NCBI GenBank assembly: GCA_017882165.1
Contig: JADGPZ010000003.1
Span: 878 to 64,877, forward strand
From: Candidatus Kapaibacterium sp.
GTDB lineage: Bacteria > Bacteroidota > Ignavibacteria > Palsa-1295
Length of the DNA: 64,000 bases
Direction of reading: 5' to 3'
Below the pieces are notes generated by a model that did no database searches, had not been told where the DNA came from, and was given only the letters and a program-made list of their open reading frames with translations. Below are positions 8,877 to 40,825 of this stretch, piece after piece (the stretch's first letter is position 1; each line of letters begins with the position of its first letter). The position numbers and the translations under genes were made by a program.

Positions 8877-8905
8877 AGCCGCGCAGGCACGTCGCCCTTT
8901 CATCC

Positions 8906-23781: not shown

Positions 23782-24615
23782 CTACATACCGAAGAACCTC
23801 TTTCGTTTCGCAGGCGAGGGCTTGCCGGTTCTGGAAAGCCGTTTCCGGATGGCCGTGAGATTGGCCTCGTCCAATTCAATCGCTGGAATTGGTCTGCCTT
23901 CGCAAACAGCAAGCGGGTTCTCGGTGACCATTCTGTCCGCAACGATGGGACGCGCAAAGTTTCTGGTCCGCTCTTCCATCTCCTTCAGAAGTTCATACGC
24001 CCCCGGCCAGCTTGTGAAGGGTCGCGTTTTGACATTGTGGGCATCGCTGGCCACGATCGAGACAAGCCCCGACTCGACAAGCGCCAGCGCACACGCCTCG
24101 AACGACTCGCCCAGTTCGCCAAGAAGGCACCCCGTCGTCACCTGCAAGTGCGCGCCCTGCCGCACAAACTCGAGCGCAAGCTCCGGATTTCGAAGCACAC
24201 CCATATTCCGCTCCGGATGCGCAATGATGGGAATGATTCCGGCCAGACGGTAGTCAAAGAGAAGTTGACTAAAGTACGGTGGCACCTGATCGAAGTCCAT
24301 TTCGAGCAAGATGTACTTCGACTGCTCTGACGCTGTAAACTCCTTCCGTGTTACGACCTCGCGCGTCTCGGAGGTAGCTCGCACTTCTCCACCGAGATAG
24401 AGGTCCATCGCGGGCCGCCGATCCAGAACAAGTTGGAATTTCTCCTTGTGGTGCGCGTGCCGCGGCAGCTCGTCCAACCGGCCACGGATATGGGGCGTCG
24501 TCAGGATCGCGGTCACACCGCACGCGCGCGCCTGCTCGATCATCGCGAGCGCAGCCTCCACGGACTCCGCGCCATCATCGACGCCTGGCACCAAATGGCA
24601 ATGGATATCAACCAC
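23782..24615 (-). CDS. CpsB/CapC-family PHP-domain protein-tyrosine phosphatase
   Basis: MVDIHCHLVPGVDDGA PHP motif (GTG start), 277 aa. Adjacent to the BY-kinase. Confidence 0.75.
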   Translation of the reverse strand: MVDIHCHLVPGVDDGAESVEAALAMIEQARACGVTAILTTPHIRGRLDELPRHAHHKEKFQLVLDRRPAMDLYLGGEVRATSETREVVTRKEFTASEQSKYILLEMDFDQVPPYFSQLLFDYRLAGIIPIIAHPERNMGVLRNPELALEFVRQGAHLQVTTGCLLGELGESFEACALALVESGLVSIVASDAHNVKTRPFTSWPGAYELLKEMEERTRNFARPIVADRMVTENPLAVCEGRPIPAIELDEANLTAIRKRLSRTGKPSPAKRKRFFGM

Positions 24616-25627
24616 TCTCTGCCTCCTTCAATTTGCTCGCCGATCCAATCGAAACACCTTCTCCAATGAGCACACCGAGTCCTGCAAGCGTGACGCTGAT
24701 GTAGCTCAACGCATGCGTGGCAATTGCATAAGCAAGCGCAACGGCTGCTGGAACGCCAAAGATCATCGCCAGCCCTGTCTTGATCAAAGCATGATACGAT
24801 CCGGTCGCGCCGGGTGTCGGAATCGTATACGCAATGCCCGAGAGCGTAAGCAGCAGACACGCATCCCCAAACGTCAGCGACATCGTAGCATCAAAGCCTT
24901 GCATCGATACCCACATCGAAACGCCATAGAGCAGCCAAATACCAGCGGTACCAATAACCAGCGGTAGAATCGCAGAGCGATCCAAACCGCGAAGCCCAAG
25001 CGAAAACTCAAGCGCGATCTTCTCCACTCGTTTCGCAAATCGCTCTGGCAATCGCTTGACAAAGATATTGACGAATTGCAGTGTCCTCCGCTCACTAAAA
25101 AACATGAGGATGAAGAGGATCAACACGGCGAGCATTGCTGCTAAGATCGCAACCCCAGTGCCAGAAAACATGGAGGAGACTTTCGTCAACTTCGAACCAT
25201 ACGCCCATAGCGAGTAGATCATCAGTGCCGCCAACGCCAGAACATCCGCAAGCCGCTCGACAACGACGCTCGCAAGAGCGCCGGCCATCGGAATCTGCTC
25301 GCCGCGTGACATCAGGTACGGACGCACCAACTCGCCTGAGCGCGGGATGAGATTGTTCATCCCGTAACCTGCGATGGTAGCCCGAAACGCTCGCCAGAAG
25401 CTCGTCTGCCGCTTGAGAGGCCTGAGCACGATCTGCCACCGAAACGCGCGCACGGCATGAGAAAGAAACATCAGCACGATGCCGCCAAGCAGCGGCAGAA
25501 TGTGCGCGTCCTCGATCGAACGAATGGCCTCCGACAAATCCTGCCCGCGAAAGGCGAGATACAGAAGCCCTATGGTAACAAGGGCAATGGCGAGGTACTG
25601 AAGGGCGCGACGGTTCAAGCTTGGCAA
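24608..25627 (-). CDS. UPF0104 / lysylphosphatidylglycerol-synthase-TM-like (flippase-like) membrane protein
   Basis: Multi-TM. HAVRAFRWQIVLRPL matches the family signature by my recollection. TTG start in the track. Confidence 0.5.
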   Translation of the reverse strand: MPSLNRRALQYLAIALVTIGLLYLAFRGQDLSEAIRSIEDAHILPLLGGIVLMFLSHAVRAFRWQIVLRPLKRQTSFWRAFRATIAGYGMNNLIPRSGELVRPYLMSRGEQIPMAGALASVVVERLADVLALAALMIYSLWAYGSKLTKVSSMFSGTGVAILAAMLAVLILFILMFFSERRTLQFVNIFVKRLPERFAKRVEKIALEFSLGLRGLDRSAILPLVIGTAGIWLLYGVSMWVSMQGFDATMSLTFGDACLLLTLSGIAYTIPTPGATGSYHALIKTGLAMIFGVPAAVALAYAIATHALSYISVTLAGLGVLIGEGVSIGSASKLKEAESG

Positions 25628-26172
25628 ATTGATTGGCCATTACAACGCACCAAAACGCCTTTCATTCCGCAGCCCGCGATATTCCCCCTCGTCGGCATTG
25701 CGAGAAGGCCGAAGGCCGGTCCCGAGGAAACGAGGGAAGCAATCCCGTCTCGTTAGCCTGAACTCCACGGACGACTACGACTGACCTGACTTAAGCCCTA
25801 CCTGCCACAAGGCAAATAGCTTTCATCTGCTTGTTTGTTCTTTCAAAGTTCATGAACCCGCTGTGGCGGGCCGCAAATGCGCTGATTTCGCGATCTTGCC
25901 TTTCACAGAGCAGTCAATTTCTCTCTTTTGAATTGTCATTTAATGAACGCCCTCTCCTTACCCATGAGCCGCGATGAATCAATTGTCAATGAGCAAATTG
26001 CCGGCACCTCTTGTCATCCTTCATCCATCAGCCTTCATCCTTTTCCCCAGAAATGGTGCCTATGACCATCACAACCAATATACGACACGAAAAACCCCGA
26101 TGCAAGCACTTTCGCAAAAATTCGTAAAATTGTTGCGACCGTGGATCATCACAGTGCCGGAGGCACGCAATG

Positions 26173-26355
26173 TTAGTAGCCGGTGACGCAAGTCACCGGG
26201 TGGCGAGCGGTATGAGATTCAGAGTCCCGAAAGGGACGGCATGTGTCGCTGGCAGAAGATTGCATGTCGTCACTCCGTGACTTTCCGGATCGCGCGGGCA
26301 TCGTTTCCGGTGACTCACGTCACCGGCTACCAACATTCCGTCCCGTTGGGACTCG
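26173..26355. repeat. Two tandem ~127-bp-spaced modules, each a perfect palindrome CCGGTGAC-N4-GTCACCGG (26180-26199; 26307-26326) followed by a GTCCC-N4-GGGAC hairpin (26224-26237; 26340-26352)
   Basis: Read directly; lies in a 0.9-kb non-coding stretch at the edge of the low-GC island. Confidence 0.5.
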
Positions 26356-26563
26356 GAGCCGCGACGCATCCCACCCATCCCAGTTCAGACATCCCCGCAC
26401 TCCACCCGCTCAGGCCGCGTGTGGTTTTGGTTGCACGCGAACCCACTTGGGCGCGGCAGCGACAAAGTGCCGGAGCCACGAAGTACCCGCAGCCAGGGGT
26501 GGAGCGAGCTGCACCTATTGTGCGGCGAAGCGGAACCCCGTGATGTTTGTTCAAAAAAAATCA

Positions 26564-27535
26564 TCAACGTTTTGGACGCAAAGATTCGCTCAGTTGTGTA
26601 ATTGTATCTAATAACTTAATGCAGGCTGGGCGAGCTATATCAAGCGCATTCGACTCATATTGCCAGGCTTTCGGCTGGAATCTTGGTCGACGAACCACAT
26701 AAGGTTTAACGAAAACTTTAATCCCGTCTGGATCATTTTCCATAAAAACATAAAAGGAAATCATTCTTTGAATTTCCTGCTCACCGAAAGGCTTACCGCA
26801 ATCAGGATCTCTGCAAAGATGTGAATCAGTCATATAGCCTAATGGCGGAAAAAACAGTAACGAACCCTCACCATAATCCCCCCAATCCATCCAAGCACCA
26901 GCAGCTATCCCGATTCTTTGCAAGAGGTCATTTACCGACTCTAAAAATCTCTTCTGCAATACAAAATAGATTGGCGTGAAAACGAATTCAGAATCCGGCC
27001 GTGGTTTTGCAACACCGAAATTCAAGGTTTTGGAGGACAAAGCGCCTTGCAAGAAATCAGGCGGTAGAAACTTTTGGTATTCAACATGCCCTCCTCCGCT
27101 CGACCGGCGTCCTCCGAACATAGACTCCCCAGAGGCACCAGTGTCGCTATTGAGATGCCTGTGTCCGATCCAATGACGAAGGCAATGATTTTCAAGAGTT
27201 CGAACAATTGTGTCATGTAAAATCACAAAACTAAAATCGACGGTATCGCAGCTGTTAGAATTACCACTAAACAGCACGGTGGTCGCCGAGTCGGACCACC
27301 AAGTGAGTTTATGGCATTCGTGATCGTCCTCACCGAGGATGGTCACCGAATCAAACAATTGGAAATAAATTGGATACAGTGGATTGAGTGGGTCGCGTAG
27401 GGATGCCAGAAGCAACTTTCCCGGCTTTGCAGGTCCGCAATCCGCTTCTTGAGCGTAGACGCTACTTGAACTCCGCAAAGAAACTTGAACGATAAGTGTA
27501 ATGATCAAAAAGTGGTAGCAAGATTTTCGAGTCAT
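26564..27535 (-). CDS. Secreted hypothetical protein
   Basis: Signal peptide (MTRKSCYHFLIITLIVQVSLRSSSSVYAQ); low-GC (~45%) island; start overlaps the upstream membrane-protein gene (ATGA). Confidence 0.4.
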   Translation of the reverse strand: MTRKSCYHFLIITLIVQVSLRSSSSVYAQEADCGPAKPGKLLLASLRDPLNPLYPIYFQLFDSVTILGEDDHECHKLTWWSDSATTVLFSGNSNSCDTVDFSFVILHDTIVRTLENHCLRHWIGHRHLNSDTGASGESMFGGRRSSGGGHVEYQKFLPPDFLQGALSSKTLNFGVAKPRPDSEFVFTPIYFVLQKRFLESVNDLLQRIGIAAGAWMDWGDYGEGSLLFFPPLGYMTDSHLCRDPDCGKPFGEQEIQRMISFYVFMENDPDGIKVFVKPYVVRRPRFQPKAWQYESNALDIARPACIKLLDTITQLSESLRPKR

Positions 27536-27942
27536 TGAACTTCTCCTCCTGGTTGTAGGTCATTCCCTTGAAGAAAATAAAATGCGAGCATCCCCGTGAT
27601 TAGGAATGAAGAACGTGAACGAATATCCTGGATCATGCCGACAGTCTCGGTCGCGTCACTCATTGTATAAATTAAGAATACGAAGCAACCGGCGTAGATT
27701 ATCGAGACAACAATAGCCACAGTGTCTAAGCCCACACTTACAACCTCTTTGCGCTTATGACGATACTTCTCGAACAAGAAGACGAGCATCGTCGTTAGAG
27801 GTGGAGCAAATGTGTCGAACACTTGGGTCTCCAGTCTCGAAAACTCACCGCCTAATCCGGTGGCATGCACTAACGCAAAGGACAGGCAGAGCGCAAAGCA
27901 ACCTAACCAAAACAGCACCAGAGTAATGTGAATTTTCCTCAT
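27532..27942 (-). CDS. Small integral membrane protein (4 predicted TM)
   Basis: Hydrophobic segments; co-oriented and overlapping with 26564..27535. Confidence 0.4.
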   Translation of the reverse strand: MRKIHITLVLFWLGCFALCLSFALVHATGLGGEFSRLETQVFDTFAPPLTTMLVFLFEKYRHKRKEVVSVGLDTVAIVVSIIYAGCFVFLIYTMSDATETVGMIQDIRSRSSFLITGMLAFYFLQGNDLQPGGEVQ

Positions 27943-28142
27943 TATGACGAGTGAGCAATGACAATTACTTTCATTAGACCTACAAACATACGCAATTCAG
28001 ATGATTTTGTCAAGCTCAATGTCATAACAACCTCCCTGCTCCCCGCTCGCATCCTCCACCTGCGCGCGTTTGAAGGTCGAGCGGCCCAGCGAAGACTCAG
28101 GATGAGAAAGTCTTAAGTGTCAGTCATCAATCGTTTGGATGT

Positions 28143-28799
28143 CTACTCGTCCATCACCTCATCCTCCGATACCTTCGGGTACAAGAGGTCGAAGAAGTTA
28201 CTCCAGAGTGGGCGCAACGATTCATAAGTCTCAAAACCACGTCTGTTTTGGGATTTAAATCGTCTCTCCCATTCTCCACTAGAGTGTATATTGATTAGAC
28301 GCCACATGGTATCGATGGTCATCATTCCAAAATCGATGAAGTCGCGCAGCAATACACTACCGATGGGGGATGTACCAGGGTAAGCGCCTACACGGAAGGC
28401 GCTCTTCCCCTCAAACTCTGTGTGGCGATACTTAGCCAGTGTTTTCGCGTCAGGATGCACAAACTCGGAATAAAAATCAACGACTCGGTTTCTTGACTCT
28501 GTTCTGAATCCATCCAAGAGGATTGATGCGGTCAGCAAGCCCTTAGCATGGTCTCCATCATAGACTGCAATGAGACGGTCATGCACCGCTTTTGGATGTA
28601 GCGTCTTATACCAGCGAGCCCGTTGGGTCTGATCATCTCCTCCTAAGTCTGCAAAAGAGTCAAAGAAATCAAAGTCAACGAGACTTAGCGCGAGCGCCTC
28701 CGCCACTTCTGCGAATACCCTGAAGACGCCCGCCGCTTGGGTATAGTACTTTCGTACTAAAAGTAGCCTTGCCGCACGCAGCTGGTTAAGTAGTTCCAT
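28143..28799 (-). CDS. Hypothetical protein (218 aa), no recognisable family
   Basis: Clean ORF in the low-GC island, downstream of an acidic 97-aa ORF. Confidence 0.4.
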   Translation of the reverse strand: MELLNQLRAARLLLVRKYYTQAAGVFRVFAEVAEALALSLVDFDFFDSFADLGGDDQTQRARWYKTLHPKAVHDRLIAVYDGDHAKGLLTASILLDGFRTESRNRVVDFYSEFVHPDAKTLAKYRHTEFEGKSAFRVGAYPGTSPIGSVLLRDFIDFGMMTIDTMWRLINIHSSGEWERRFKSQNRRGFETYESLRPLWSNFFDLLYPKVSEDEVMDE

Positions 28800-28850
28800 A
28801 AAGTGCAGAGTGAAGACAAGGAAGGCGGGCGACCTTACCGGGCGATGCGA

Positions 28851-29144
28851 TCAAATGAAGTCCTTCTCCTCTCCCATTGAGACTTGCGCGGCGTAGCGGG
28901 ACACTTCCTCAGCTTGAAGTTGAAAACAGAACAAAGTGAAGTCAAGCAGACTTAAGGTGGGTTCTATATCTGCTAAATCCTCATCGCTCGGACAATCGAT
29001 TTTCAGGAAATCTCTGTACCCGACGAAATATGCCAACACCTCTTCGCTGGAGTATTCGAACTTCAGGCACCACTTGGTTGCGCACTCCTCACTCCAAACA
29101 AGCGATAGCCGTTCTCTGAAGAGCTCTTTAGTATGTTCATTCAT
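28851..29144 (-). CDS. Hypothetical small acidic protein (97 aa)
   Basis: ORF in the island, upstream partner of the 218-aa ORF. Overlaps the methyltransferase-remnant ORF end. Confidence 0.35.
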   Translation of the reverse strand: MNEHTKELFRERLSLVWSEECATKWCLKFEYSSEEVLAYFVGYRDFLKIDCPSDEDLADIEPTLSLLDFTLFCFQLQAEEVSRYAAQVSMGEEKDFI

Positions 29145-29382
29145 AGGGGTTGTCAGTCGGAGCCTTTGCCTGGTCGACGTTCACTTTGCGAGTCCTGCCG
29201 AACTCTGAGTAATCGCGCTTCGAATTAAACGGCGGATCGAGATAAATCAGATCGACCGTCTCATCCTTGATGTGCTCTCGCGGAGGATGTGGAGGTTGTC
29301 GCCGAAATAGAGTTTGTTCATTCCTCACATTGAACGCAGTTTCCCGTATGTCATTCCCGCGAACGCGGGAATCCAGGCCCAC
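29137..29382 (-). pseudogene. Remnant of an N4/N6 DNA methyltransferase (N-terminal DPPF motif region only)
   Basis: ORF residues ...REHIKDETVDLIYLDPPFNSKRDYSEF match the N-terminal motif of N6_N4 methylases. The sequence breaks off after ~30 aa. Its upstream part is built from the hairpin repeat at 29351-29375. Confidence 0.5.
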
Positions 29383-29435
29383 CCGAACGTGGTCCTATCC
29401 CGAGAACATGGATCCCCGCGTTCGCGGGGATGACA
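29351..29435. repeat. Inverted-repeat (MITE/REP-like) element: gtcattcccgcgaacgcgggaatcc (29351-29375) and its near reverse complement ggatccccgcgttcgcggggatgaca (29410-29435)
   Basis: The two arms are ~90% reverse-complementary and each is itself a hairpin. One arm recurs at 11955-11980. Confidence 0.55.
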
Positions 29436-29579
29436 TACGGGCGGGATGGTGCCTGTCATCAGGCGTGCAATTTACGAAGAAATTGGCCCGAGGCACGCCG
29501 TCCGTTCAGAAAACTGAAACTCTCTCTGGCGCACACTGTTTACGGTGCGCACGATTAACCCAATTTTTTTCAGAGACTC

Positions 29580-29675
29580 ATGCCAAGCGGAAAGAAGCGT
29601 AAGCGCCATAAAATGGCCACCCACAAACGAAAGAAACGTCTTCGTAAGAATCGTCATAAGAAGCGTATTCGTTAG
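29580..29675 (+). CDS. Small basic protein, probable ribosomal protein bS22-like (31 aa)
   Basis: ATG 29580, TAG 29673-29675. MPSGKKRKRHKMATHKRKKRLRKNRHKKRIR resembles the bS22 pattern (MGSVIKKRRKRMxKKKHRKLLxxTRxQRR) by my recollection. Below the ORF-track size cutoff. Confidence 0.45.
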   Translation: MPSGKKRKRHKMATHKRKKRLRKNRHKKRIR

Positions 29676-29756
29676 TCGGCGATAACCACCCCCCATCGTA
29701 GGCGATGGCCCCCGCCTTGAAAAGGCGGGGGAGTTAGTGCCGGGGTAAACAAGTTA

Positions 29757-29794
29757 AGCCTCATGCAGCCATGCGCTGCGTGAGGCTTTCGTTT
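29757..29794 (+). terminator. Candidate intrinsic terminator downstream of the bS22-like gene
   Basis: 12-bp stem gcctcatgcagc / gctgcgtgaggc (one G-U pair), loop catgc, then tttcgttttgc. Confidence 0.4.
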
Positions 29795-29853
29795 TGCTTA
29801 GAGGAAGCTTTAGTGTCTGCCCGTAAGTCATTGCAGGAATGACTTTAAACAGC

Positions 29854-29886
29854 CGAAGCAATCTCCTTTGAAAGAGATTGCTTCGC
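29854..29886. terminator. Hairpin gaagcaatctc-ctttgaaag-agattgcttc between convergent genes; possible bidirectional terminator
   Basis: 11-bp perfect stem; weak T-runs on both sides. Confidence 0.3.
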
Positions 29887-29928
29887 TTTGCTCACAATGA
29901 AAGAGTCGATTGACGACTCGCCTGGAGT

Positions 29929-32037
29929 CTACCGGTTGCCCATGTTATCATCCTCGAACGGACGCCTCGGGCTGCGACGCGCGGGACCTTGTGTAGGCCG
30001 CACGTTGGTCGAATAAACGACTTGTCCCCGGACACCCTTCTGCGGCACTCCGCTTGTCGGTGGCTGGCGATCCTCCCTCGGCGGACCTTGCTCACCGCCC
30101 TGCGGTCGTCCTCTTGACGGTCCACCTTGCGGTCTGCCGCCTCCGCCACCGTATGATCTGCCACCACCGTAGCCTCCTCCTTGCTGGCCGCCGCCATAGC
30201 CACCGCCTTGACCGCCACGCTGCGGCGGACGTCCTCCTCCACGGCCATACCCGCCTCCCGATGGACGCGGCGCGTAGCCACCACCAACCGGACGGTCATA
30301 ATTGCCACCGCCTTCTGGCGGCTTCTGATAGCTGCCGCCTGGCGTCGGACGCTCATAGCTGCCCCCTGAAGGACGCGGAGCATAGCCACCGCCTGCCGGT
30401 CGCCCATAGCCTCCACCACCCGCCGGTCGATCGTAGCCTCCACCTGCTGGACGACCGTAACCTCCCTGACGCGGCGGTCTGCCCTGTCCGGGACCGCCTT
30501 GCGGCTGCCATCCACCTGCGGCTTGGCGTCCGCGCTGAGGCGGGCCGCCTCTGTAGCCACCCTGCCGTTGACCAGATTGCCCACCTTGTCTCGGGCCGCG
30601 CGGTGCTGGCCCGCTCCCCGGTTCGCGCCGGCGAATGCCGCCCGGCCCTGCTTCTCCGATAAATTTCCGCTCCTGTGGTTTCCCACCACGCTTGAACGGT
30701 TTGCGCTCGCCCTTCGGAATCATGACGCGCTTGCCTTTGGCGGCATCGAAACGCTTGCTGTTTCCTTTGCGCTGCGGCTTCTGACGTGGCTTGCGCGCCT
30801 TCCGTGCCGGAGGCACGGTTGCGCCCCATGCTTCTTCTTCCAATCGAGCCTGCTCGCGTACGGGCGCGGCGATGAACTGAAACGTATCCGCGCCGATAAT
30901 CTTGTCGGCGATAGCTTTGCCACTCCAGAATGCGGAGGCGATCGAACTTTGTCCGGCGACGAAATCACCTGCGAGATACAGCGGCGATTTGAACTCGTCC
31001 TGCTTGATCGTATCGACCGTGAATGGCGAGGACGAAAGGAATGCGGCCGGCCAACGCTGGATCTCGCCATAGACCACGTCCGGCAGCGCCACGTCGAGGA
31101 CGTCCTCAAAGACGCGCTCGATTGCGGCGAAGGTCTCCTTGTCGGACTTCAGCACATACTCGCGGCTGATGTCGGCGCCAAGTTGCAGCACAAACGCCAT
31201 CTCATTCTTGCGCTGTCCAAGCTTGCGGCGCTCGCCTTCCTGCGAGAGCCAGAAGACCGGCGCCGTAACATCGTCGGTGAAAAGCGCCGAGAAGTGATCT
31301 TTGAATTTGATCTTCGTCGTTCCAAACATCGCGCCGATCATCGGCTCGTAGTTCACCTCGTTGAGGAGGTCGCAAATGCGCTTGACTTTCTTGTTCTTGT
31401 CTGCATGTGGCAGCAATAACGCAAGCACATAAGGCGCGGGCATTGCGATGACCACGCCATCCGATGGCATGGCCTCGCCGCGCTGATTGCGGAGCGTATA
31501 ACCTTTGTCCTCGAAGACGAGATCGCTGATGCGCGTGTGTGTCCGCACGGGGATGTCCTTGACGAGGGCATCGGCCAGGACCTTGAAGCCGCCATCGAGA
31601 TAATTCCAATTCGGCACCTCGACCTGCTGCGCGGATGCGATGGACCGGCCATCGAAGCGATAGACTGGACCGGGAAATGGCAGTAAGTGTTCGAGCACGC
31701 CGCGCTCTTCGCAGACGGCACGGAGCAACGCGCGGGCGTCGGTCTCGAGTTGGTTCACGCTGAGCGGCGAAAGGTCAAGCCGTTGCGTGCCGGAGTCCAT
31801 TGTCCGGTATCCGACATTGCGTGTGGACGCACGCCCGCCAAGTCCGCGCGACCACTCGAGGACGGTCACGTCCTTGCCGGCGCGGTGGAGAAAATATGCG
31901 GCGGACAGACCGGCAAAGCCTCCGCCAATAACGGTAATCATAATCTGGTGATGCTTCGTGTGTGGCTCGTTTCTTAGGCGAGCTGTGAGTTTCTGAATCA
32001 AAAAAAGGGACCACCCCAAAGCGAGGTGCGGGTCCAC
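29929..32037 (-). CDS. FAD-dependent oxidoreductase (amine-oxidase/Rossmann fold, ~400 aa) fused to a ~280-aa Lys/Arg-rich then Gly/Pro/Arg/Gln-rich repeat tail
   Basis: N-terminus MITVIGGGFAGLSAAYFLHRAGKDVTVLEWSRGLGGRAS (GxGxxG FAD motif). Tail has a KPRQKPQRKGNSKR... basic stretch, then degenerate repeats GGGY(G/D/A)RP(A/S)GG. Confidence 0.65.
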   Translation of the reverse strand: MDPHLALGWSLFLIQKLTARLRNEPHTKHHQIMITVIGGGFAGLSAAYFLHRAGKDVTVLEWSRGLGGRASTRNVGYRTMDSGTQRLDLSPLSVNQLETDARALLRAVCEERGVLEHLLPFPGPVYRFDGRSIASAQQVEVPNWNYLDGGFKVLADALVKDIPVRTHTRISDLVFEDKGYTLRNQRGEAMPSDGVVIAMPAPYVLALLLPHADKNKKVKRICDLLNEVNYEPMIGAMFGTTKIKFKDHFSALFTDDVTAPVFWLSQEGERRKLGQRKNEMAFVLQLGADISREYVLKSDKETFAAIERVFEDVLDVALPDVVYGEIQRWPAAFLSSSPFTVDTIKQDEFKSPLYLAGDFVAGQSSIASAFWSGKAIADKIIGADTFQFIAAPVREQARLEEEAWGATVPPARKARKPRQKPQRKGNSKRFDAAKGKRVMIPKGERKPFKRGGKPQERKFIGEAGPGGIRRREPGSGPAPRGPRQGGQSGQRQGGYRGGPPQRGRQAAGGWQPQGGPGQGRPPRQGGYGRPAGGGYDRPAGGGGYGRPAGGGYAPRPSGGSYERPTPGGSYQKPPEGGGNYDRPVGGGYAPRPSGGGYGRGGGRPPQRGGQGGGYGGGQQGGGYGGGRSYGGGGGRPQGGPSRGRPQGGEQGPPREDRQPPTSGVPQKGVRGQVVYSTNVRPTQGPARRSPRRPFEDDNMGNR
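30117..30450 (-). repeat. Degenerate in-frame tandem repeats (~27-30 nt units, ccaccgcc-rich) encoding GGGYGRPAGG-like units of the oxidoreductase tail
   Basis: Visible periodicity in both protein and DNA. Confidence 0.45.
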
Positions 32038-32334: not shown

Positions 32335-32526
32335 CTACTTGGCCTCTTCCACGACCACCAGATGCTGGACGGCCCGGATCATGCCTCGAATGGCAGGCGT
32401 GTCGTTGTGAACGGCAACGTAGTGAGGACGTCCGAGACCGAGCGCCTTGATCGTGCGCTTATGCTGCTCGAGCGTGTCGCACGTGGAGCGCGTTTGCCGG
32501 ATGAGAATCTTCTTTGTCGGTGCCAT
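32335..32526 (-). CDS. rpmD: 50S ribosomal protein L30
   Basis: 63 aa; ...TLEQHKRTIKALGLGRP...DTPAIRGMIRAVQHLVVVEE matches L30 by my recollection. Confidence 0.85.
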   Translation of the reverse strand: MAPTKKILIRQTRSTCDTLEQHKRTIKALGLGRPHYVAVHNDTPAIRGMIRAVQHLVVVEEAK

Positions 32527-32576
32527 GATTAACCACCCCCTGCCCCCTCCTTCGAAAGGAGGGGGTAATGATAATA

Positions 32577-33080
32577 TTACCCGTTAAAAACTTTTGTCAG
32601 CGAAACGCCGCGTCGTTCGGAAACCATCGACGCATCGTTCAGCGATTCCAATGCCGCCATCGTCGCTTTCACAAGGTTGTGCGGATTCGATGAACCTTGC
32701 GATTTTGTCAGAATGTCCTGGACGCCTGCGAGTTCGAGTACTGCTCGAACACCACCGCCGGCAATCAGCCCCGTTCCGGGCGAAGCCGGCTTCAGCATAA
32801 CCTTGCCGGCGCCAAATTTGCCTAACGTCATGTGCGGGATCGTACCCCGGCGAAGTGGCACGGAGCGAACATTGCGCTTCGCGTCTTCCGTCGCCTTGGA
32901 CACAGCATCGGCTACTTCGTTCGACTTGCCAAGACCAATACCGACATGCCCCTGACCATCGCCAACGGCGACGATCGCATTGAAGCTAAACCGGCGTCCA
33001 CCTTTGACAACCTTCGCAACGCGATTGACCGCGACGAGCTTGTCCTTGAGATTGAGTTCCGCTGAGCGAATTTTTGACAC
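32577..33080 (-). CDS. rpsE: 30S ribosomal protein S5
   Basis: Position in the spc cluster; [10 protein letters not shown] and GAGLIAGG S5 motifs. Confidence 0.9.
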
Positions 33081-33096
33081 GCTGTATTCCTACAAA

Positions 33097-33453
33097 TTAA
33101 AACACCAGTCCGCCTTCACGCGCGCCATCGGCGAGCGCTTTGACGCGACCATGATAGAGATACCCATTGCGGTCGAACACCGCCGACGTAATGCCCTTTT
33201 CCACTGCGGCCTGCGCGAGGACCTTACCGGTCTGCTTCGCAAGCTCCGTTTTGGGACCCTTGAGTCCCTTGCTGCTTGCGGCCGCAACCGTGAATCCCTG
33301 CGCATCATCAATGAGTTGCGCGTAGACGCCGGTGTTGCTCCGGAAGATGACCAGACGCGGCCGCTCGGCCGTACCCTGGATCTTGTTGTGGATCGTGTGC
33401 CTGCGCCGCTCGCGTCGGCGAGCCTTGGCCTGCAAATGAAGTTTCGATGCCAT
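33097..33453 (-). CDS. rplR: 50S ribosomal protein L18
   Basis: 118 aa, [12 protein letters not shown]...[10 protein letters not shown], cluster position. Confidence 0.9.
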
Positions 33454-33478
33454 TGCTGTTCCTGCTTAGCTTCTTATC

Positions 33479-34018
33479 TTACTTTCCTGCGGTCTTACCG
33501 GCCTTGCGAATGATCTTCTCGCCCGCATACTTCACGCCCTTGCCCTTGTAGGGTTCTGGCGGACGCATCGAGCGGATCTTCGCGGCCACGGCTCCGACCA
33601 ATTGCTTGTCGATACCCGAAACGGTAATCTGAGTCGGCGCGGGAACATCGACCGTGATCTCATCCGGGACCACAAGCACGATGGGGTGCGAATACCCGAG
33701 CGCGAACTGCACCCATTTTCCCTTCTTCTCAGCCTTGTAACCAACGCCGACAAGTTCAAGCTTCTTTTGGAAGCCCGTCGTCACGCCTTCGACCATGTTG
33801 TTCGCAAGCGCGCGCGAAAGCCCATGCAGCGCGCGAACGCGGCGATCCTCGCTCGATCGCGTGAACGTAAGCTGGTCCTGCTCGATATGCGCGGTCACGA
33901 CTTCCGGCAGCCGCTGCGATAGCTGGCCCTTCGGTCCCTTGACCTGAAGCTCGCCTTTGACATCGACCACGGTTACACCTTTCGGGATCGTGATTACTTT
34001 TCTTCCTATTCTCGACAT
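33479..34018 (-). CDS. rplF: 50S ribosomal protein L6
   Basis: MSRIGRKVITIPKGVTV..., 179 aa. Confidence 0.92.
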   Translation of the reverse strand: MSRIGRKVITIPKGVTVVDVKGELQVKGPKGQLSQRLPEVVTAHIEQDQLTFTRSSEDRRVRALHGLSRALANNMVEGVTTGFQKKLELVGVGYKAEKKGKWVQFALGYSHPIVLVVPDEITVDVPAPTQITVSGIDKQLVGAVAAKIRSMRPPEPYKGKGVKYAGEKIIRKAGKTAGK

Positions 34019-34116
34019 AATCTTCTTTTTTCGCTTACGCTAATCCGAAATCGGACGCTGCAGCATTTTTTTAGATTTCATAAATTCTATAGAATCTATA
34101 GAATAATCAAAACCTT

Positions 34117-34506
34117 TTACCAAACGTAACAAAGCACTTCGCCGCCGACATTCGCCTGACGGGCTTGCTTATCGGTCATGAGGCCTTTCGGCGTCGAAAG
34201 GATCGCGATCCCAAGCCCGGAGAGCACACGCGGTGTCTCCGTTGCTTTCGTATACCGTCGAAGTCCCGGCGTCGAAATACGCTTGAGACCCATGATCGCC
34301 GGCTGCCCGTTCGTGTACTTCAGCGTCACGCGGAGCATCCCCTGTTTCGTATCCTCGATCCGCTCGATCGAGTCGATATAGCCTTGCTCGCGCATGATCT
34401 CGGCCATCGCAAATTTCAGGTTCGAAGCCGGCACATCGACATACTTATGCCGCGCGCCCAGCGCGTTGCGCACTCGGGTCAAAAAATCGCCAATCGTATC
34501 CATCAA
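34117..34506 (-). CDS. rpsH: 30S ribosomal protein S8
   Basis: [15 protein letters not shown]..., 129 aa. Confidence 0.92.
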
Positions 34507-34551
34507 GAATTCAAAATAATCAAAATGTCCAGCTCCGCTCGTGCGACGCTA

Positions 34552-34737
34552 TTACCAGCTCGACTTCCGTACGCCGGGTATCTTTCCCTCTAATGCCAGC
34601 TCCCGAAAACAGAGCCGACAGATCCCGAACTTCCGGTAGTACGCGCGTGACCGCCCACAGCGGTTGCATCGGTTGTGCACGCGTGTCGCAAACTTCGGTT
34701 TGCGCTTCGCTTTGACTCTCAGGGCTAATCGTGCCAT
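34552..34737 (-). CDS. rpsN: 30S ribosomal protein S14 type Z (zinc-binding)
   Basis: 61 aa, [25 protein letters not shown] zinc-ribbon form. Confidence 0.9.
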
Positions 34738-34782
34738 CTCTGAAGTGCTAAAGTGCTATTCTTAGTACGAAACTGCTGGTGT

Positions 34783-35505
34783 TTAGGCCGTTTCCGTTTC
34801 GCGCTTGCGGAACGGCAGACCAAACGCTTTCAAAAGTTCGAGCGCTTCCTCGTCCGTGCGGGCGCTGGTCGCGAACGTAATGTCCATTCCCGTGATCTTC
34901 GAAACCTTATCGACATCGATTTCCGGGAAGATAATCTGCTCGCGAATGCCGAGCGTGTAGTTGCCACGGCCGTCGAACGACTTATCCGGAATACCGCGGA
35001 AATCGCGGATACGCGGGATGGCCGTCGTCATGAGCCGATCCAAAAACTCGTACATGCGCGCCCGGCGCAGTGTGACGCGGCATCCAATCGCCTGGTTCTC
35101 GCGAAGCTTGAAGTTCGAAATCGACTTTTTCGACTTGGTGATCGCGGGCTTCTGACCTGTGACGGCTTCAAGATCGCGGACGGCTGCCTCGAGCAACTTC
35201 GGATCGCTCGCAGCGGCGCCGACGCCGATATTGATTGCGATCTTATCGATGCGTGGTACTTGATTCACATTTTCGTAACCGAATCGCTTCATCAGCGACG
35301 GTACGACATCGCTGCGATATTTCAGCAGTAACCGTGCGGGCGGAATGGGGCGATCCTTCGCCTGGAACGCCTCGGCATGTGGTTCGCCGCGGCCACCAGA
35401 CTTTTTGTCGCCCTTCCCCTTACCCTCGCCCTTCGGCGTCTTGGGTTTTCCTTCACCGGCTGCCGGAGCGGCCTTCGGTTGTTTCTTTGCTTTCTCTTCT
35501 GCCAT
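34783..35505 (-). CDS. rplE: 50S ribosomal protein L5 with a ~55-aa Lys/Gly-rich N-terminal extension
   Basis: Core [39 protein letters not shown] at 35505 with no internal ATG before the core, so the extension appears real. Confidence 0.88.
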
Positions 35506-35552
35506 TTTTTCTTGTCCTAAGCAACGATATTGGCCGTTGCTCCTAAGCTTAG

Positions 35553-35882
35553 TTATGCGAGCACGTCCCCGGAGCGCTTCGAGAAGCGCTCGAACCGGAC
35601 CTTGCCCTCTGTGCCGATGAGTTCGCGCTTGCCGATGCGCGTCCGAAGATTCGTCTTCGGATCGACGAGCATCACGTTCGATGCATCGATCGGAGCTTCG
35701 CGGACGGTGATGCCGCCCTTCTGGTTCTTCTGCGACGGACGCTCGTGCTTGTGCTGCGTGTTCACACCCTCGACGAGCACTTTGTTCGTCTCGGGGTAAA
35801 CCCGAAGTACCTTACCATGCTTGCCACGGCTCTTGCCCGTGATCACTTCGACGATATCGTTCTTCTTGACTCTCATGTTCAA
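35553..35882 (-). CDS. rplX: 50S ribosomal protein L24
   Basis: [25 protein letters not shown] (KOW motif). Confidence 0.9.
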
Positions 35883-36247
35883 ATTACCTCCGGCGCCAGC
35901 GAAACGATTTTCATATATTGCCGCTCGCGAAGCTCGCGGGCGACCGGTCCGAAGATGCGCGTGCCACGCGGCTCGCCCTGGGCGTTGAGCAATACGACCG
36001 CGTTCTCGTCGAACCGGATGAAACTGCCGTCTTTCCGGCCGTACTCCTTTTTCGTCCGCACGATGACCGCCTTCGAAACTTCGCCCTTCTTCACCTGCCC
36101 ATTCGGAATCGCCGACTTGACGCTGACGACGACCACGTCGCCCAGACCGGCATAGCGCCGGTCATGCCCGCCCAGAATGCGGATGCAACGCACCTTCTTG
36201 GCGCCCGAATTATCGGCTACGATTAAGTTCGTTTCTTCCTGTACCAT
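35879..36247 (-). CDS. rplN: 50S ribosomal protein L14
   Basis: [23 protein letters not shown], 122 aa. Confidence 0.95.
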
Positions 36248-36285
36248 AACTACTCCAGTATCTCTCCCAAACAGAGAGGGATGTG

Positions 36286-36576
36286 CTACTTCGCTCGTTC
36301 CAAAACTTCTACAACGCGCCAGCGCTTCGTCTTCGAGAGCGGGCGAGTCTCCATGATGCGGACCGTGTCACCGGTCTTGGCATCGCTATTCTCGTCGTGC
36401 GCGACAAATGTCGTCGTCTTCTTAAAGTACTTCTTGTACAGCGGATGCGGCACCTGACGCACAAGGCTCACGATGACGGTCTTCTGCATTTTATCGCTGA
36501 CGACCTTCCCGACGCGCTCCTTGCGATGTCCGCGCACCACTGCGCTCACTTGTTCGCTCGTTTGATTCTCTGGCAT
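36286..36576 (-). CDS. rpsQ: 30S ribosomal protein S17
   Basis: Cluster position; [14 protein letters not shown]...HDEN S17 pattern. Confidence 0.88.
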
Positions 36577-36584
36577 GATAAAAA

Positions 36585-36791
36585 TTATTTCGCCAATGGC
36601 TTGCGATCCCGGAGCGACGTTTCCATCCGCGCGATGTCGCGGCGAAGCGTGCGGAACTGCGCGTGATTGTCAAGCTGTCCGATCGTCTTCTGGAATGTAA
36701 GCGAGGTCATTCGCGAGCGTGTATCCGCGATTTGCTTCAACACCTCTGCTTCGCTCAAATTCGCAAGCTCTGCGTATTTCGTACCCTTCAT
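36585..36791 (-). CDS. rpmC: 50S ribosomal protein L29
   Basis: 68 aa, [20 protein letters not shown].... Confidence 0.85.
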
Positions 36792-36801
36792 TGCTTCCCC
36801 T

Positions 36802-37221
36802 TTACTCTACGTAATCCGGCCGAACGACGACCTTTGTCTTCACCGGAAGCTTGTGCCCCGCAAGTCGAAATGCTTCCTCGGCAAGCTCTTTTGTAATGCC
36901 GCCGATCTCGAACATGATGCGCCCCGGCCGGATGACCGCGACCCAAAATTCAGGAGATCCCTTGCCAGATCCCATACGGGTCTCTGCGGGCTTCTTCGTC
37001 ACCGGCTTGTCCGGAAAGATCCGAATCCAAATTTTTCCGTCGCGCTTCATCGTACGCGAAAGCGTGACGCGAACAGCTTCGATCTGGCGGCTCGTGATCC
37101 AGCCTGACTCCAACGCCTTGAGGCCGAAGGAGCCGAATGCGAACTGCGTACCGCGAGTCTCGTTACCCGAGACTTTGCCGCGCATCGCTTTGCGATATTT
37201 TACTCTCTTTGGAAGAAGCAT
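36802..37221 (-). CDS. rplP: 50S ribosomal protein L16
   Basis: [16 protein letters not shown]..., 139 aa. Confidence 0.95.
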
Positions 37222-37245
37222 CTTCTTCTATTGCTACTCTTCTAA

Positions 37246-38157
37246 TTATTCAGCCGCTGTTTGTGTCCGGGTCCGAAGCGTCGGCTTTGGGCCATCGCTT
37301 CCCGATGCGCTACGCCCGGCTCCATCGTGTGATCCGCCGCGAGCACCGCCGCGCGTCCTTGGACCCCGATCTCCCGTGCCGCGATCGCCTCCACCTTCGC
37401 CCGAATCATCGCCGCGTCCACGTCCACCGCGACGGCGGCGTTCGCCACCGGCTGCGGAAACGATCGGACGTTTGTCCTTCTGCTCGACACCGTTTACGGC
37501 GGTTTCGGCGGCGATCTGGAGTGGCGTCTGACCGATGATGTCACCGTGGCAAACCCAAACCTTCACGCCAATCGAACCATACACCGTATGCGCTGTCGAA
37601 CGTGCAAAATCTATGTCGGCGCGGAGCGTGTGCAGCGGGATACGTCCCTCTTTATACTGCTCGCTTCTCGCGATTTCCGCACCACCAAGTCGTCCGCCGC
37701 ACATGACGCGAATGCCCTCGGCACCGGCGCGCATCGCAGCCGAAATGGAGCCCTTCATGGCGCGGCGGAAGGAAATGCGCCCCTCAAGTTGCTGCGCGAT
37801 CTGATCGGCAACAAGTTGAGCATCCGTCTCCGGCCGTTTCACTTCGTTGATAAGGATCTTCACTTCCTTACCACCCGTAATATTCTTTAGCTCCTCTTCA
37901 AGCTGCGCGATCTCTTTGCCGCTCTTGCCGATCACGACACCCGGTCGTGAGGTATGGATGGTCAGCACGACGCGCTTCGTCGTGCGGTCGAGCGTAAGCT
38001 TCGAAATTCCGGCGCGTTTCAGACGGTTCTTTACGTAAGATCGAATGAGGTTATCCTCTTCGAGCTTCTGCGCGAAATTCTTGTCGTCGTACCAGCGCGC
38101 GTCCCACGGTCTGGTTACCGCGACTCTGAAGCCAATGGGGTGTGTTTTTTGTCCCAA
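37246..38157 (-). CDS. rpsC: 30S ribosomal protein S3 with a Gly/Arg/Asp-rich C-terminal extension (~70 aa)
   Basis: MGQKTHPIGFRV..., KH domain; tail GGERRRRGGRGRGDDSGEGGGDRGTGDRGPR.... Confidence 0.92.
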   Translation of the reverse strand: MGQKTHPIGFRVAVTRPWDARWYDDKNFAQKLEEDNLIRSYVKNRLKRAGISKLTLDRTTKRVVLTIHTSRPGVVIGKSGKEIAQLEEELKNITGGKEVKILINEVKRPETDAQLVADQIAQQLEGRISFRRAMKGSISAAMRAGAEGIRVMCGGRLGGAEIARSEQYKEGRIPLHTLRADIDFARSTAHTVYGSIGVKVWVCHGDIIGQTPLQIAAETAVNGVEQKDKRPIVSAAGGERRRRGGRGRGDDSGEGGGDRGTGDRGPRTRGGARGGSHDGAGRSASGSDGPKPTLRTRTQTAAE

Positions 38158-38175
38158 ATTATCTTCCTATCGTCT

Positions 38176-38628: not shown

Positions 38629-38633
38629 TATAC

Positions 38634-38915
38634 TTATTTCGTCGCTACTTCGGTCTTCGTTCCTGAGTGTCCACGGAAGGTCCGCGTTGGCGAAAACTCG
38701 CCGAGCTTGTGTCCCACCATGTTCTCCGTCACATAGACCGGAATGAACTTGTTACCATTGTGGACCGTGAAGGTGTGACCGACAAAATCCGGCGAGATCG
38801 TTGAGGATCGCGACCAGGTCTTCACCACTTTCTTCTGACGAGCAGCATTGAGCGTCTCCACTTTTCGGAGCAGCTTCTCGTCAATGAACGGTCCTTTTTT
38901 CAGCGAACGTGACAT
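38634..38915 (-). CDS. rpsS: 30S ribosomal protein S19
   Basis: [16 protein letters not shown]...[12 protein letters not shown]. Confidence 0.95.
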
Positions 38916-38921
38916 ACTTTT

Positions 38922-39758: not shown

Positions 39759-39763
39759 TGCTC

Positions 39764-40081: not shown

Positions 40082-40101
40082 GATTCTTCCCTGATGTCCC
40101 G

Positions 40102-40776: not shown

Positions 40777-40825
40777 GTGTTTTCGATAGATTCTATGGAT
40801 TCGATAGATTCTATAAAATCTACTC

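Follow-up and report, generated by a model that had tools for sequence, protein, structure and literature searches.

A low-GC islet beside a break in the S10-spc ribosomal protein cluster of a Kapabacteria-like bacterium: two adjacent and probably separate features

Genes and features of the locus

The window (the whole 64-kb stretch of DNA that was analysed) contains the following features, given here in descending order of position.

41946-43154, tuf (identity confirmed), directly upstream of the S10-spc cluster
32335..41869, minus strand, S10-spc ribosomal protein cluster, rpsJ to rpmD, 20 genes (Pfam and annotation on contig L001)
41567-41869, minus strand, rpsJ, upstream end of the cluster
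32335-32526, minus strand, rpmD, last gene of the cluster (TIGR01308 match, 2.3e-18)
32012..32028, minus strand, terminator-like hairpin with T-run, about 300 nt downstream of rpmD (consensus scan only)
29929..31941, minus strand, FAD-dependent amine-oxidase-type oxidoreductase (Pfam Amino_oxidase, 1.4e-20; NAD_binding_8)
29756-29788, terminator hairpin of the bS22 gene (consensus scan)
29580..29675, plus strand, bS22 ribosomal protein gene, 31 aa, convergent with the oxidoreductase (phmmer against PDB)
29343..29441, no strand assigned, MITE/REP-like element, two 33-nt inverted arms (GTCATTCCCGCGAAnGCGGGAATCCA) 33 nt apart
26541..29355, no strand assigned, compositionally foreign core (the islet), 2815 bp, 47.0% GC
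29191..29324, minus strand, DNA methyltransferase pseudogene, N-terminal ~44 of ~570 codons, with motif DPPF
28851..29144, minus strand, isl97, orphan open reading frame (ORF) of 97 aa, first gene of pair 2
28143..28799, minus strand, isl218, orphan ORF of 218 aa, second gene of pair 2
27532..27942, minus strand, isl136, small multi-pass membrane protein, first gene of cassette 1
26564..27535, minus strand, isl323, 323 aa, second gene of cassette 1
26307-26353, plus strand, Acido-Lenti-1 (RF01687) motif (cmscan)
26153-26199, minus strand, Acido-Lenti-1 (RF01687) motif (cmscan)
24608..25627, minus strand, LPG_synthase_TM-family membrane protein, left flank (Pfam)

From rpsJ to rpmD no gene of the S10-spc cluster is missing, as an earlier note on this DNA had stated, and all of its genes lie on the minus strand. 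Pfam matches identify S10, L3, L4, L23, L2, S19, L22, S3, L16 and S14, and L29, S17, L14, L24, L5, S8, L6, L18, S5 and L30 are annotated by way of contig L001, which matches the window at 100% identity. Neither tblastn with the proteins of contig L030 nor a survey of ORFs found rplO, secY or map anywhere in the 64-kb window, so that rplO-secY is indeed missing downstream of rpmD and the synteny break noticed there is real. No transposable element was found at the rpmD junction. Judged from its sequence, the hairpin at 32012..32028 probably marks where the truncated spc transcript ends.

The gene that follows rpmD is, as first described, an oxidoreductase; it possesses a C-terminal tail of ~270 aa rich in Arg, Gly, Pro and Tyr. 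Its ORF is open to position 32037 and its homologues begin at Met33 (MITVIGGG). These homologues, which are 72-83% identical, are found in 12 Kapabacteria/Ignavibacteriota genomes, and in most of these the gene has other, conserved upstream neighbours. The tiny bS22-like gene that had been counted as part of the island is present and is a genuine bS22, with phmmer matches in PDB to 9i5v_10 (4.6e-10), 7jil_5 (30S protein S22, 1.9e-09) and 8fmw_V (bS22, 1.3e-05), but it is not cargo. A 97% identical ORF occupies the same convergent position in contigs L003 and L010, and a motif upstream of the gene (~29513-29550) can be aligned in relatives; because of this conservation the gene and its motif are assigned to the core genome. 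The low GC content of the ORF (44.8%) is explained by its being only 96 bp long and rich in Lys and Arg.

Composition and content of the islet

The islet (26541-29355) was delimited as the maximal-scoring low-GC segment, and its score was reached by 0 of 300 block shuffles. When the sequence is compared by intervals of 2.5 kb, none deviates as strongly as 26501-29000 (tetranucleotide z = 4.2, GC z = -3.7), and GC3 is 0.42-0.55 in the four islet ORFs versus 0.57-0.73 in 25 host genes. The tract described earlier (~4 kb of ~45% GC in a ~59% background) exists, but only ~2.8 of its 4.3 kb are deviant, at 47.0% GC in a window of 55.5% (56.5% in the ribosomal operon). The full span first outlined (25628-29930) has 49.6% GC, and its left 0.9 kb (25628-26563) is ordinary non-coding spacer of 54.6% GC that holds the palindromes. 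Farther left, the LPG_synthase_TM gene opens a normal-GC run of exopolysaccharide type, comprising a CpsB phosphatase, a Wzc-like kinase and a GT4 glycosyltransferase-family gene (Pfam; GC3 0.64-0.69). Nothing marks an insertion here: neither an integrase or transposase nor a tRNA gene was found, and the islet has no direct repeats at its flanks.

Cassette 1 consists, as had been read from the letters, of a putatively secreted protein and a small membrane protein in one operon: the stop of isl136 overlaps the start of isl323. Hydrophobic segments in isl136 include residues 2-31 and 66-97 plus others, and isl323 has 8 Cys and an N-terminus that resembles a Sec-type signal peptide. When 1.84 billion representatives were searched exhaustively with HMMER, isl323 matched only itself and one protein, P0003 (E = 1e-4); in a pairwise alignment the C-terminal 138 aa of the two show 28% identity, and both have an LCxxxDCGKPxG motif. 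The 140-aa ORF that adjoins P0003 is in turn 34% identical to isl136 over its full length (E = 2e-22), and cassette 1 thus recurs as an adjacent pair, in reversed gene order, in an unrelated 391-kb contig (L104), where it has 43.9% GC between flanks of 55.8% and 54.4%. Its genes are paired, the larger protein has a signal peptide and a conserved C-terminal domain behind a variable N-terminus, and the unit recurs at low GC in an unrelated genome. On these grounds cassette 1 is most plausibly, if with low confidence, a mobile unit in which an exported protein is coupled with a membrane partner, such as a toxin/effector with an immunity protein.

The second module, the two-gene unit listed earlier as unknown, is likewise present. 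Its first product, isl97, is acidic (21 D+E versus 9 K+R; GC3 0.55), has no match in Pfam, NCBIfam, PADLOC or PHROGs, and is also called as a gene on Logan contig L094. Its second, isl218, is predicted to be all-helical; among 5.8 billion proteins it matches only itself, and plasmids, phages and PDB gave no match. AF2 models of isl323 (pLDDT 33.8) and isl218 (pLDDT 38.6) are unusable. Altogether the four islet ORFs have no family matches and essentially no homologues.

At the right end of the islet lies the methyltransferase stump, confirmed here as both frameshifted and truncated. The pseudogene carries a +2 frameshift, ends after ...NSKRDYSEF and reads, in two frames, as MNKLYFGDNLHILRE / HIKDETVDLIYLDPPFNSKRDYSEF. 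When the frame is repaired, the peptide matches DNA methyltransferases of plasmids, with identities of up to 75.7% (E = 8e-14), and nothing of a 572-aa homologue beyond its residues 12-55 can be found anywhere in the window. PADLOC assigns the stump to MTase_II (2.7e-4) and is otherwise empty on the islet; neither a restriction gene nor any recognised defence protein was found. The REP/MITE-like inverted repeats were also correctly noticed: the element lies 22 nt upstream of the pseudogene start, at the right islet edge, and its arms are 94% complementary and occur in just these two copies in the window, where none would be expected. Its DNA fold has an energy of -40.3 kcal/mol (z = -6.4), and the same element, with identical architecture, is found in Kapabacteria relatives (L007:180-253 and L005:1983).

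The two perfect-palindrome modules that had been placed in the low-GC region do contain perfect 8-bp-stem palindromes, but they are Acido-Lenti-1 motifs and stand outside the low-GC core, in non-coding DNA of normal GC. In cmscan they score 37.9 and 36.8 bits, the gathering score being 37. The two copies are divergent, with a 107-nt spacer, and alignment reveals one compensatory change between them (G-C to C-G, in the second stem). Pair and spacer together can fold as one ~210-nt RNA hairpin (-104.8 kcal/mol, z = -5.9). No further copies were found, either elsewhere in the window or among 146 kb of sequence from relatives.

Origin of the operon break and of the islet

The rpmD gene is also the operon end in the closest metagenomic relatives with enough sequence (L015, L016, L017 and L019/L020; rpsE 90-96% identical), in which it is followed by convergent Sua5 and AtuA genes on the opposite strand, with no islet gene and no oxidoreductase. 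The operon of L026/27 (86%) likewise stops at rpmD. The order rpmD-rplO-secY-map is intact in L023, L024 and L069 (83-88%), in three Kapabacteria-type contigs (L095-L097) and in ~50 loci of distant relatives (<=79%). A detached rplO-secY-map-infA-rpsM-rpsK-rpsD operon with non-ribosomal genes upstream is encountered in L099-L101 and in a contig of a Kapabacteria MAG (L102), that is, in two Kapabacteria-type lineages. These four contigs share no gene with the window, and their membership of the clade with the rpmD break is plausible; they point to relocation of the distal spc half rather than its displacement by an insert. Since the closest relatives that lack islet genes also end at rpmD, the break is taken to be older than the islet and common to the clade.

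These observations bear directly on the claim that an island was inserted where the operon should continue. For such a single event, in which an insertion after rpmD displaced rplO-secY, speak the distance of the islet from rpmD (<3 kb), a window without rplO-secY and a compositionally foreign tract; yet the closest relatives share the break and carry no island gene, the islet does not touch rpmD but is separated from it by the terminator-like hairpin, the 2-kb core oxidoreductase and the core bS22 gene, and past the islet there is an exopolysaccharide locus where ribosomal genes would have to resume. The claim is abandoned here, as a single event is extremely improbable. Very unlikely, too, is an artefact of assembly or binning, a chimeric contig in which the low-GC tract or the rpmD junction would join DNA of different organisms. 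The window does come from a metagenome-type assembly, there are abrupt steps in composition at 26.54 kb and 29.36 kb, and repeats (the MITE and the Acido-Lenti pair) lie near both edges, where assemblers can mis-join. However, Logan contig L001 covers window positions 37142-31040 at 100% (rpmD, spacer and oxidoreductase) and L094 covers 29236-28063 (isl218, isl97 and the point where the methyltransferase stump adjoins), though both stem from one sample (SRR10489837), are 100% identical to the window and may be the same reads assembled differently, and this support spans neither the junction at ~26.5 kb nor that at 29.36-29.5 kb. In addition, contig L014, from another study, has the same rpmD-spacer junction at 84.7% nucleotide identity, bS22 is convergent with the oxidoreductase in L003 and L010, and the presence of the MITE family in Kapabacteria relatives ties the right edge to the lineage.

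It is also conceivable, if unlikely, that the four ORFs are native genes, lineage-restricted, weakly expressed and fast-evolving or de novo, whose low GC would reflect relaxed codon selection. The near-absence of homologues and of any mobility gene, att-like repeat or tRNA would fit, as would another low-GC patch (10137-11633) that lies inside an ordinary Peptidase_S41 gene. Against this, the cassette 1 pair is again ~11 GC points under its flanks in the unrelated contig, the tract contains a decayed DNA methyltransferase, typically a mobile defence gene, and its tetranucleotide deviation is the strongest in the window.

The locus is thus best read, and with fair assurance, as two adjacent and separate things, an old clade-wide operon split and a later acquired 2.8-kb islet. 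The spc operon would have been cut between rpmD and rplO long ago in the Kapabacteria-like lineage of the window, and the distal block (rplO-secY-map-infA-rpmJ-rpsM-rpsK-rpsD...) would now stand elsewhere as its own operon. DNA beyond rpmD would have been reshuffled after the split, the FAD oxidoreductase and convergent bS22 coming to lie there in this genome and in one other lineage. After the split, the islet would have lodged between the bS22 gene and the exopolysaccharide locus, bearing isl136 with isl323, isl97 with isl218, and the methyltransferase N-terminus. No sufficiently close genome without the islet at this site was found for a presence/absence comparison; from composition, orphan status and the recurrence of cassette 1 in L104 we infer that the islet is horizontally acquired and decayed, a fairly ordinary acquired patch in a rearrangement-prone spot. 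The patch of foreign DNA claimed earlier stands, being lineage-specific, compositionally deviant and decayed, with small repeats nearby. In its most likely history, a restriction-modification-type or other mobile segment would have been gained horizontally, its methyltransferase then lost to a frameshift and a deletion, and other cassettes gained or retained; as no mobility gene remains, the islet would now be fixed cargo. That the site is a hotspot for acquired DNA is a reasonable suggestion with slight support, as relatives differ both in the gene next after rpmD and in those that lie downstream of the oxidoreductase.

Comparison with known systems

A published study of ribosomal cluster contiguity describes a similar lineage-specific loss of contiguity in a highly conserved cluster, with insertions followed by full disconnection, which the diverging neighbourhood among descendants resembles here. 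The cut lies, however, inside the spc operon (rpmD/rplO) rather than between operons, and the clade is uncultured, Kapabacteria-like and outside the coverage of that study. The bS22 gene is an ordinary orthologue with no notable difference, its residues 1-29 being nearly identical to those of Bacteroidota bS22 (PDB 7JIL chain 5; 9I5V).

With genomic islets and small defence-type islands the islet shares atypical composition, orphan genes, a truncated DNA methyltransferase, abutting small repeats and a polysaccharide locus next door, but it has no integrase, recombinase, tRNA or direct repeats, and no restriction gene or recognised defence protein. Cassette 1 resembles polymorphic toxin/immunity pairs in its tight linkage, in a partner that is a small membrane protein, in the variable N-terminus and conserved ~135-aa C-terminal domain of the larger protein, and in its occurrence in unrelated genomes with foreign composition. 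It differs from them in that gene order flips between its two occurrences and in the absence of a recognisable toxin, immunity or trafficking domain, so that the likeness is one of resemblance only.

The Acido-Lenti-1 motifs (RF01687; Weinberg et al. 2010, PMC2864571) retain the two-hairpin architecture and conserved linker of the published motif, with scores at the gathering threshold. The host here is Kapabacteria-like, not a member of the Acidobacteria or Lentisphaerae, and the motifs occur as an inverted pair 107 nt apart that is able to form one long hairpin.

The ribosomal operon and its end at rpmD

Twelve genomes assembled from metagenomes, with the labels Candidatus Kapaibacterium, Ignavibacteriota or Bacteroidetes, encode oxidoreductases 72-83% identical to the one found next to the ribosomal cluster of the window, and the source of the window is therefore an uncultured Kapabacteria-like bacterium. 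The cluster and the gene that follows it are arranged as listed here.

41946-43154, minus strand: tuf, directly upstream of rpsJ
41567-41869 (rpsJ) to 32335-32526 (rpmD), minus strand: 20 ribosomal genes, unbroken and in order (Pfam or NCBIfam)
32028-32012: terminator-like hairpin and T-run, after rpmD and before the oxidoreductase gene
next after this hairpin: oxidoreductase gene of the FAD amine-oxidase family (Pfam, 1.4e-20)

An earlier note had described the S10-spc cluster as complete from rpsJ to rpmD, and all 20 genes are indeed present on one strand. It had also reported that rplO-secY are missing after rpmD and that an oxidoreductase gene follows instead, and both observations hold. 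Searches by tblastn with RplO, SecY and Map of L030 (a related locus; identity verified by Pfam) returned no match to rplO, secY or map in the entire 64-kb window, nor did a survey of all its long ORFs reveal any of the three. The operon thus stops at rpmD, and the canonical contiguous S10-spc-alpha order, in which rplO-secY(-map/adk)-infA-rpmJ-rpsM come directly after rpmD, is not found. At the other end of the cluster (41946-43628), no fusA, rpsG or rpsL precedes tuf; the genes found there are two for YfhO-like membrane proteins, encoded on the opposite strand. On this side too, that of the str operon, the cluster seems to be interrupted.

The junction between rpmD and the oxidoreductase recurs at 100% identity in L001, a Logan contig built independently, the sample of which may be the source of the window. 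More telling is L014, a contig from a different study and a different organism: it aligns with the window at 84.7% nucleotide identity over a stretch running from rpsE past rpmD to the end of the spacer, where the oxidoreductase starts. That start is probably Met33, at position 31941, as every homologue begins there. The tail of the protein (29929-30837, minus strand) is a low-complexity stretch of about 270 aa, rich in Arg, Gly, Pro and Tyr, with GGYGRPAGGGY-type repeats and a GC content of 67%; conservation of the tail is evident from the full-length alignment of homologues in L002 and L007. The gene is flanked by two ribosomal-protein loci in the window and adjoins bS22 in two related loci (L003 and L010).

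The operon break is inherited and independent of the islet

RpsE served as query for a metagenome scan, which yielded 80 loci; in each, the gene after rpmD was examined. In the relatives with 90-96% identical rpsE and enough downstream sequence (L015, L016, L017 and L019/L020) no rplO follows rpmD; Sua5 and AtuA genes (Pfam-checked) come after it on the opposite strand. Contiguity of rpmD and rplO is likewise broken in L026/L027 (86% rpsE), and the order rpmD-rplO-secY-map is kept in L023, L024 and L069 (83-88%) as well as in about 50 loci at 79% or less. The synteny break that the earlier note placed after rpmD is therefore real. Its proposed cause, an island inserted into the operon, does not survive this comparison: the oxidoreductase and every island gene are absent from all 80 loci, so that the closest relatives are broken without any island gene, and the cut between rpmD and rplO is a feature inherited within the subclade that exists without the island. 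What resembled an island insertion in the most conserved bacterial gene cluster is actually an inherited operon split, which makes this result mostly a correction, and the foreign DNA beside the break is a separate, later event.

The destination of the missing genes was approached through the contexts of the groups nearest to the SecY of L024. Three of these (L095, L096 and L097/98) are canonical, and in the group of proteins P0007/8/9 rplO-secY-map-infA-rpsM-rpsK-rpsD form a stand-alone operon. Upstream of the detached rplO-secY operon lies a divergent AraC-type regulator gene in L099-L101, and unrelated small ORFs in L102, a Kapabacteria MAG. Such rplO-led operons fit a relocation of the distal spc block; the contigs L099-L102, which have no gene in common with the window, may plausibly belong to its clade. 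For annotation of the Kapabacteria-like group, an spc operon ending at rpmD is genuine and should not be taken to indicate misassembly, and rplO-secY are to be looked for in an operon of their own.

The oxidoreductase has conserved upstream neighbours in 8-10 of the 12 related genomes, and these are missing in the window; its placement after rpmD accordingly represents a second, younger rearrangement. The short gene between rpmD and Sua5 also varies among the rpmD-terminated relatives, L015 having a weakly PsbP-like ORF of 172 aa (8838-9356), L016 an ORF of 125 aa (8824-9198), and L017 and L019 none, which is further small-scale variability right after rpmD. Since the neighbourhoods after rpmD and after the oxidoreductase differ among relatives, we infer that the DNA downstream of both genes is prone to rearrangement.

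Composition, limits and gene content of the islet

The island had been drawn at 25628-29930, as some 4 kb of about 45% GC against a background of about 59%. An anomalous tract is real by windowed GC, tetranucleotides and GC3, but these figures exaggerate it: the span has 49.6% GC, the ribosomal operon 56.5% and the whole window 55.5%. The maximal-scoring low-GC segment, here called the islet, is 26541-29355 (2815 bp, 47.0% GC), with a score of 125.7 against a shuffle mean of 32.6 and maximum of 62, a score reached by none of 300 block shuffles. The 2.5-kb interval 26501-29000 is the top outlier of the whole sequence (tetranucleotide z = 4.2, GC z = -3.7), and GC3 of the four islet ORFs is 0.42-0.55 versus 0.57-0.73 in 25 host genes. 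The islet thus combines the atypical composition and codon usage of a classical genomic island. Of the extent first proposed only these 2815 bp stand; the left 0.9 kb (25628-26563) was rejected as part of the island on its normal GC of 54.6%, and the right end holds the core gene bS22. The second-strongest low-GC segment of the window (10137-11633, 1497 bp, 47.6% GC) is part of a 632-aa ORF whose C-terminal domain is Peptidase_S41. The islet and its surroundings comprise the following features, the four islet ORFs being named by their length in amino acids.

left flank: LPG_synthase_TM, CpsB, Wzc-like kinase and GT4 glycosyltransferase genes, a normal-GC exopolysaccharide-type run (Pfam)
26180-26199 and 26307-26326: palindromes CCGGTGAC-N4-GTCACCGG, the first hairpins of two divergent Acido-Lenti-1 matches
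26564-27535, minus strand: isl323, with a signal-peptide-like N-terminus and 8 Cys
27532-27942, minus strand: isl136, a multi-pass membrane protein
28143-28799, minus strand: isl218, no family match
28851-29144, minus strand: isl97, acidic, no family match
29191-29324, minus strand: methyltransferase pseudogene, start ATG at 29321
29343-29441: MITE-like element, 22 nt upstream of the pseudogene start, with 33-nt arms that are 94% complementary
29580-29675, plus strand: bS22 gene, matching chains of solved Bacteroidota and other ribosomes

The bS22 ORF matches ribosome chains 9i5v_10 (4.6e-10), 7jil_5 (1.9e-09) and 8fmw_V (1.3e-05), and Pfam COX24_C at only 1.8. In L003 and L010 a 97% identical bS22 ORF is likewise found downstream of the oxidoreductase gene and convergent with it. 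It is on this conservation in relatives that bS22 was rejected as island cargo; the ORF is a bona fide bS22 and a core gene, one that is real in Kapabacteria-like genomes and easily missed. In all three loci (29513-29550 on the plus strand in the window, L003 and L010) a conserved motif, GAAACTCTCTC...ACTGTTT(C/A), precedes the bS22 start by 30-70 nt and could be a promoter or leader element. Five separate hairpins, including GTCATTGCAGGAATGAC and CGAAGCAATCTC...GAGATTGCTTCG, are found in the 250 bp (29690-29925) between the convergent bS22 and oxidoreductase genes; two are terminator-like and the others may be further small repeats.

Alignment with relatives, proposed earlier as a means of defining the island boundaries, succeeded on the right, where homology extends to approximately 29510, so that the DNA specific to the lineage has its limit shortly past the repeat at 29343-29441; the 12 Kapabacteria genomes from an oxidoreductase-centred scan are syntenic with the window on neither side. 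Elements with the same architecture as this repeat, which is single-copy in the 64-kb window, occur in the Kapabacteria loci L005 and L007, and it therefore belongs to a repeat family of this lineage. Short, non-coding, bounded by terminal inverted repeats and present in multiple copies in the lineage, it bears out the REP/MITE-like repeats of the earlier note.

The methyltransferase stump had likewise been recognized correctly. It reads MNKLYFGDNLHILRE from ATG 29321 and then HIKDETVDLIYLDPPFNSKRDYSEF after a +2 frameshift, and the repaired 40-aa peptide is up to 75.7% identical (E = 8e-14) to annotated plasmid DNA methyltransferases. The DPP[YF] catalytic motif and conserved N-terminal context of N6/N4 methyltransferases are retained (LIYLDPPFNS), whereas an intact frame including the AdoMet-binding region is not, and residues 12-55 of a 572-aa homologue are the sole part represented anywhere in the window. 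The gene is thus a pseudogene, frameshifted and more than 90% deleted. Restriction-modification-type DNA appears to have been present at the islet formerly and to have decayed since.

The remaining ORFs form two gene pairs. The first, isl97 and isl218, has no family match in Pfam, NCBIfam, PADLOC or PHROGs, in keeping with its earlier description as a two-gene module without assigned function. Among 5.8 billion proteins isl218 matched only itself, plasmid, phage and PDB searches with it returned nothing, and its single-sequence AlphaFold model is unusable (pLDDT 38.6). The second pair, referred to as cassette 1 (27942-26564), does have the character of the operon of a secreted protein and a small membrane protein that was originally proposed, the stop of isl136 overlapping the start of isl323. 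A homology search with isl323 recovered the query itself only; scanning 1.84 billion representatives exhaustively with HMMER added a single weak relative, P0003 (E = 1e-4), which aligns with the C-terminal 138 residues only, at 28% identity, and has the LCxxxDCGKPxG motif in common. A model of isl323 from this two-sequence alignment is likewise unusable (pLDDT 33.8). Directly after P0003 on its 391-kb contig (L104) lies a gene for a membrane protein of 140 aa, which matches isl136 along the full length with 34% identity (E = 2e-22), so that isl136 and isl323 constitute a conserved two-gene unit, with the order swapped. The unit on L104 has 43.9% GC against 55.8% and 54.4% in its flanks, and this recurrence at low GC is the best single evidence for mobile cargo rather than native DNA.

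Beside the second cassette copy, L104 carries at 7385-9323 several long inverted repeats (45-nt and 31-nt arms) and a tail-sheath-like ORF beginning MTEYLAPGVYVEE that is split in two pieces; identified by eye, this may be a contractile-injection-system locus.

Possible mobility of the islet and comparison with other ribosomal-cluster breaks

The islet is a 2.8-kb, compositionally foreign tract of orphan gene pairs and a dead methyltransferase, abutted by a lineage-typical MITE, and we infer that it was acquired horizontally. No integrase, recombinase or transposase is encoded by the island ORFs (Pfam, NCBIfam, PHROGs), no tRNA lies at the islet (the window's only tRNAs are at 56.8-57.1 kb), no flanking pair of direct repeats was found around it, and PADLOC recognised no defence protein beyond the methyltransferase stump. 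None of the 100-odd related loci has any of the island genes, none is syntenic at the junction between bS22 and the exopolysaccharide genes or supplies an empty-site comparator, and look-ups of the exact isl323, isl136 and LPG-synthase proteins matched no contig. Small islets that lack an integrase and contain decayed methyltransferases are common.

The products of cassette 1 may be an exported, Cys-rich effector with a conserved C-terminal LCxxxDCGKPxG domain and a dedicated small multi-pass membrane partner. The cassette would then pass between soil bacteria that are only distantly related, and might be a new system for effector/immunity or surface-modulation functions. A toxin or immunity domain, as would be expected of a polymorphic toxin pair, was not detected in it by Pfam, NCBIfam, PADLOC or PHROGs, and viral-contig scans with both cassette-1 alignments gave no match.

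The two perfect-palindrome modules assigned to the island are present, but they lie outside the low-GC islet and belong to matches to the Acido-Lenti-1 motif (RF01687), which score 37.9 bits, just above, and 36.8 bits, just below, the gathering score of 37. The DNA around this pair, between the LPG_synthase_TM gene and the islet, is non-coding and of normal GC. Alignment of the copies shows one compensatory change (G-C to C-G) in the second hairpin, and the two copies with their 107-nt spacer can be folded as one hairpin of about 210 nt (-104.8 kcal/mol, z = -5.9). Just as well, the inverted pair could be an element at the DNA level, and the 'RNA motif' could be the repeat that terminates a small mobile DNA element. 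No further copy occurs in the window, in 146 kb of related genomes or in L104. The small 3' hairpin has a third, partial copy (CAAAGTGCCGGAGCCACG) at 26463-26484, 313 nt from the left full copy. Only two elements have some discovery value: the cassette, which occurs in two genomes unrelated to each other, and the Acido-Lenti-1 pair. We regard it as rather unlikely that isl136, isl323 and their L104 relative are a new mobile two-gene cassette and that, separately, the Acido-Lenti-1 pair is a mobile-element terminal repeat.

Disruptions of ribosomal-cluster contiguity tend to precede further synteny loss (Brandis 2021, PMC8046335). The break after rpmD is the same kind of event as the breaks described there, with the difference that here the cut is intra-operonic and belongs to an uncultured clade.
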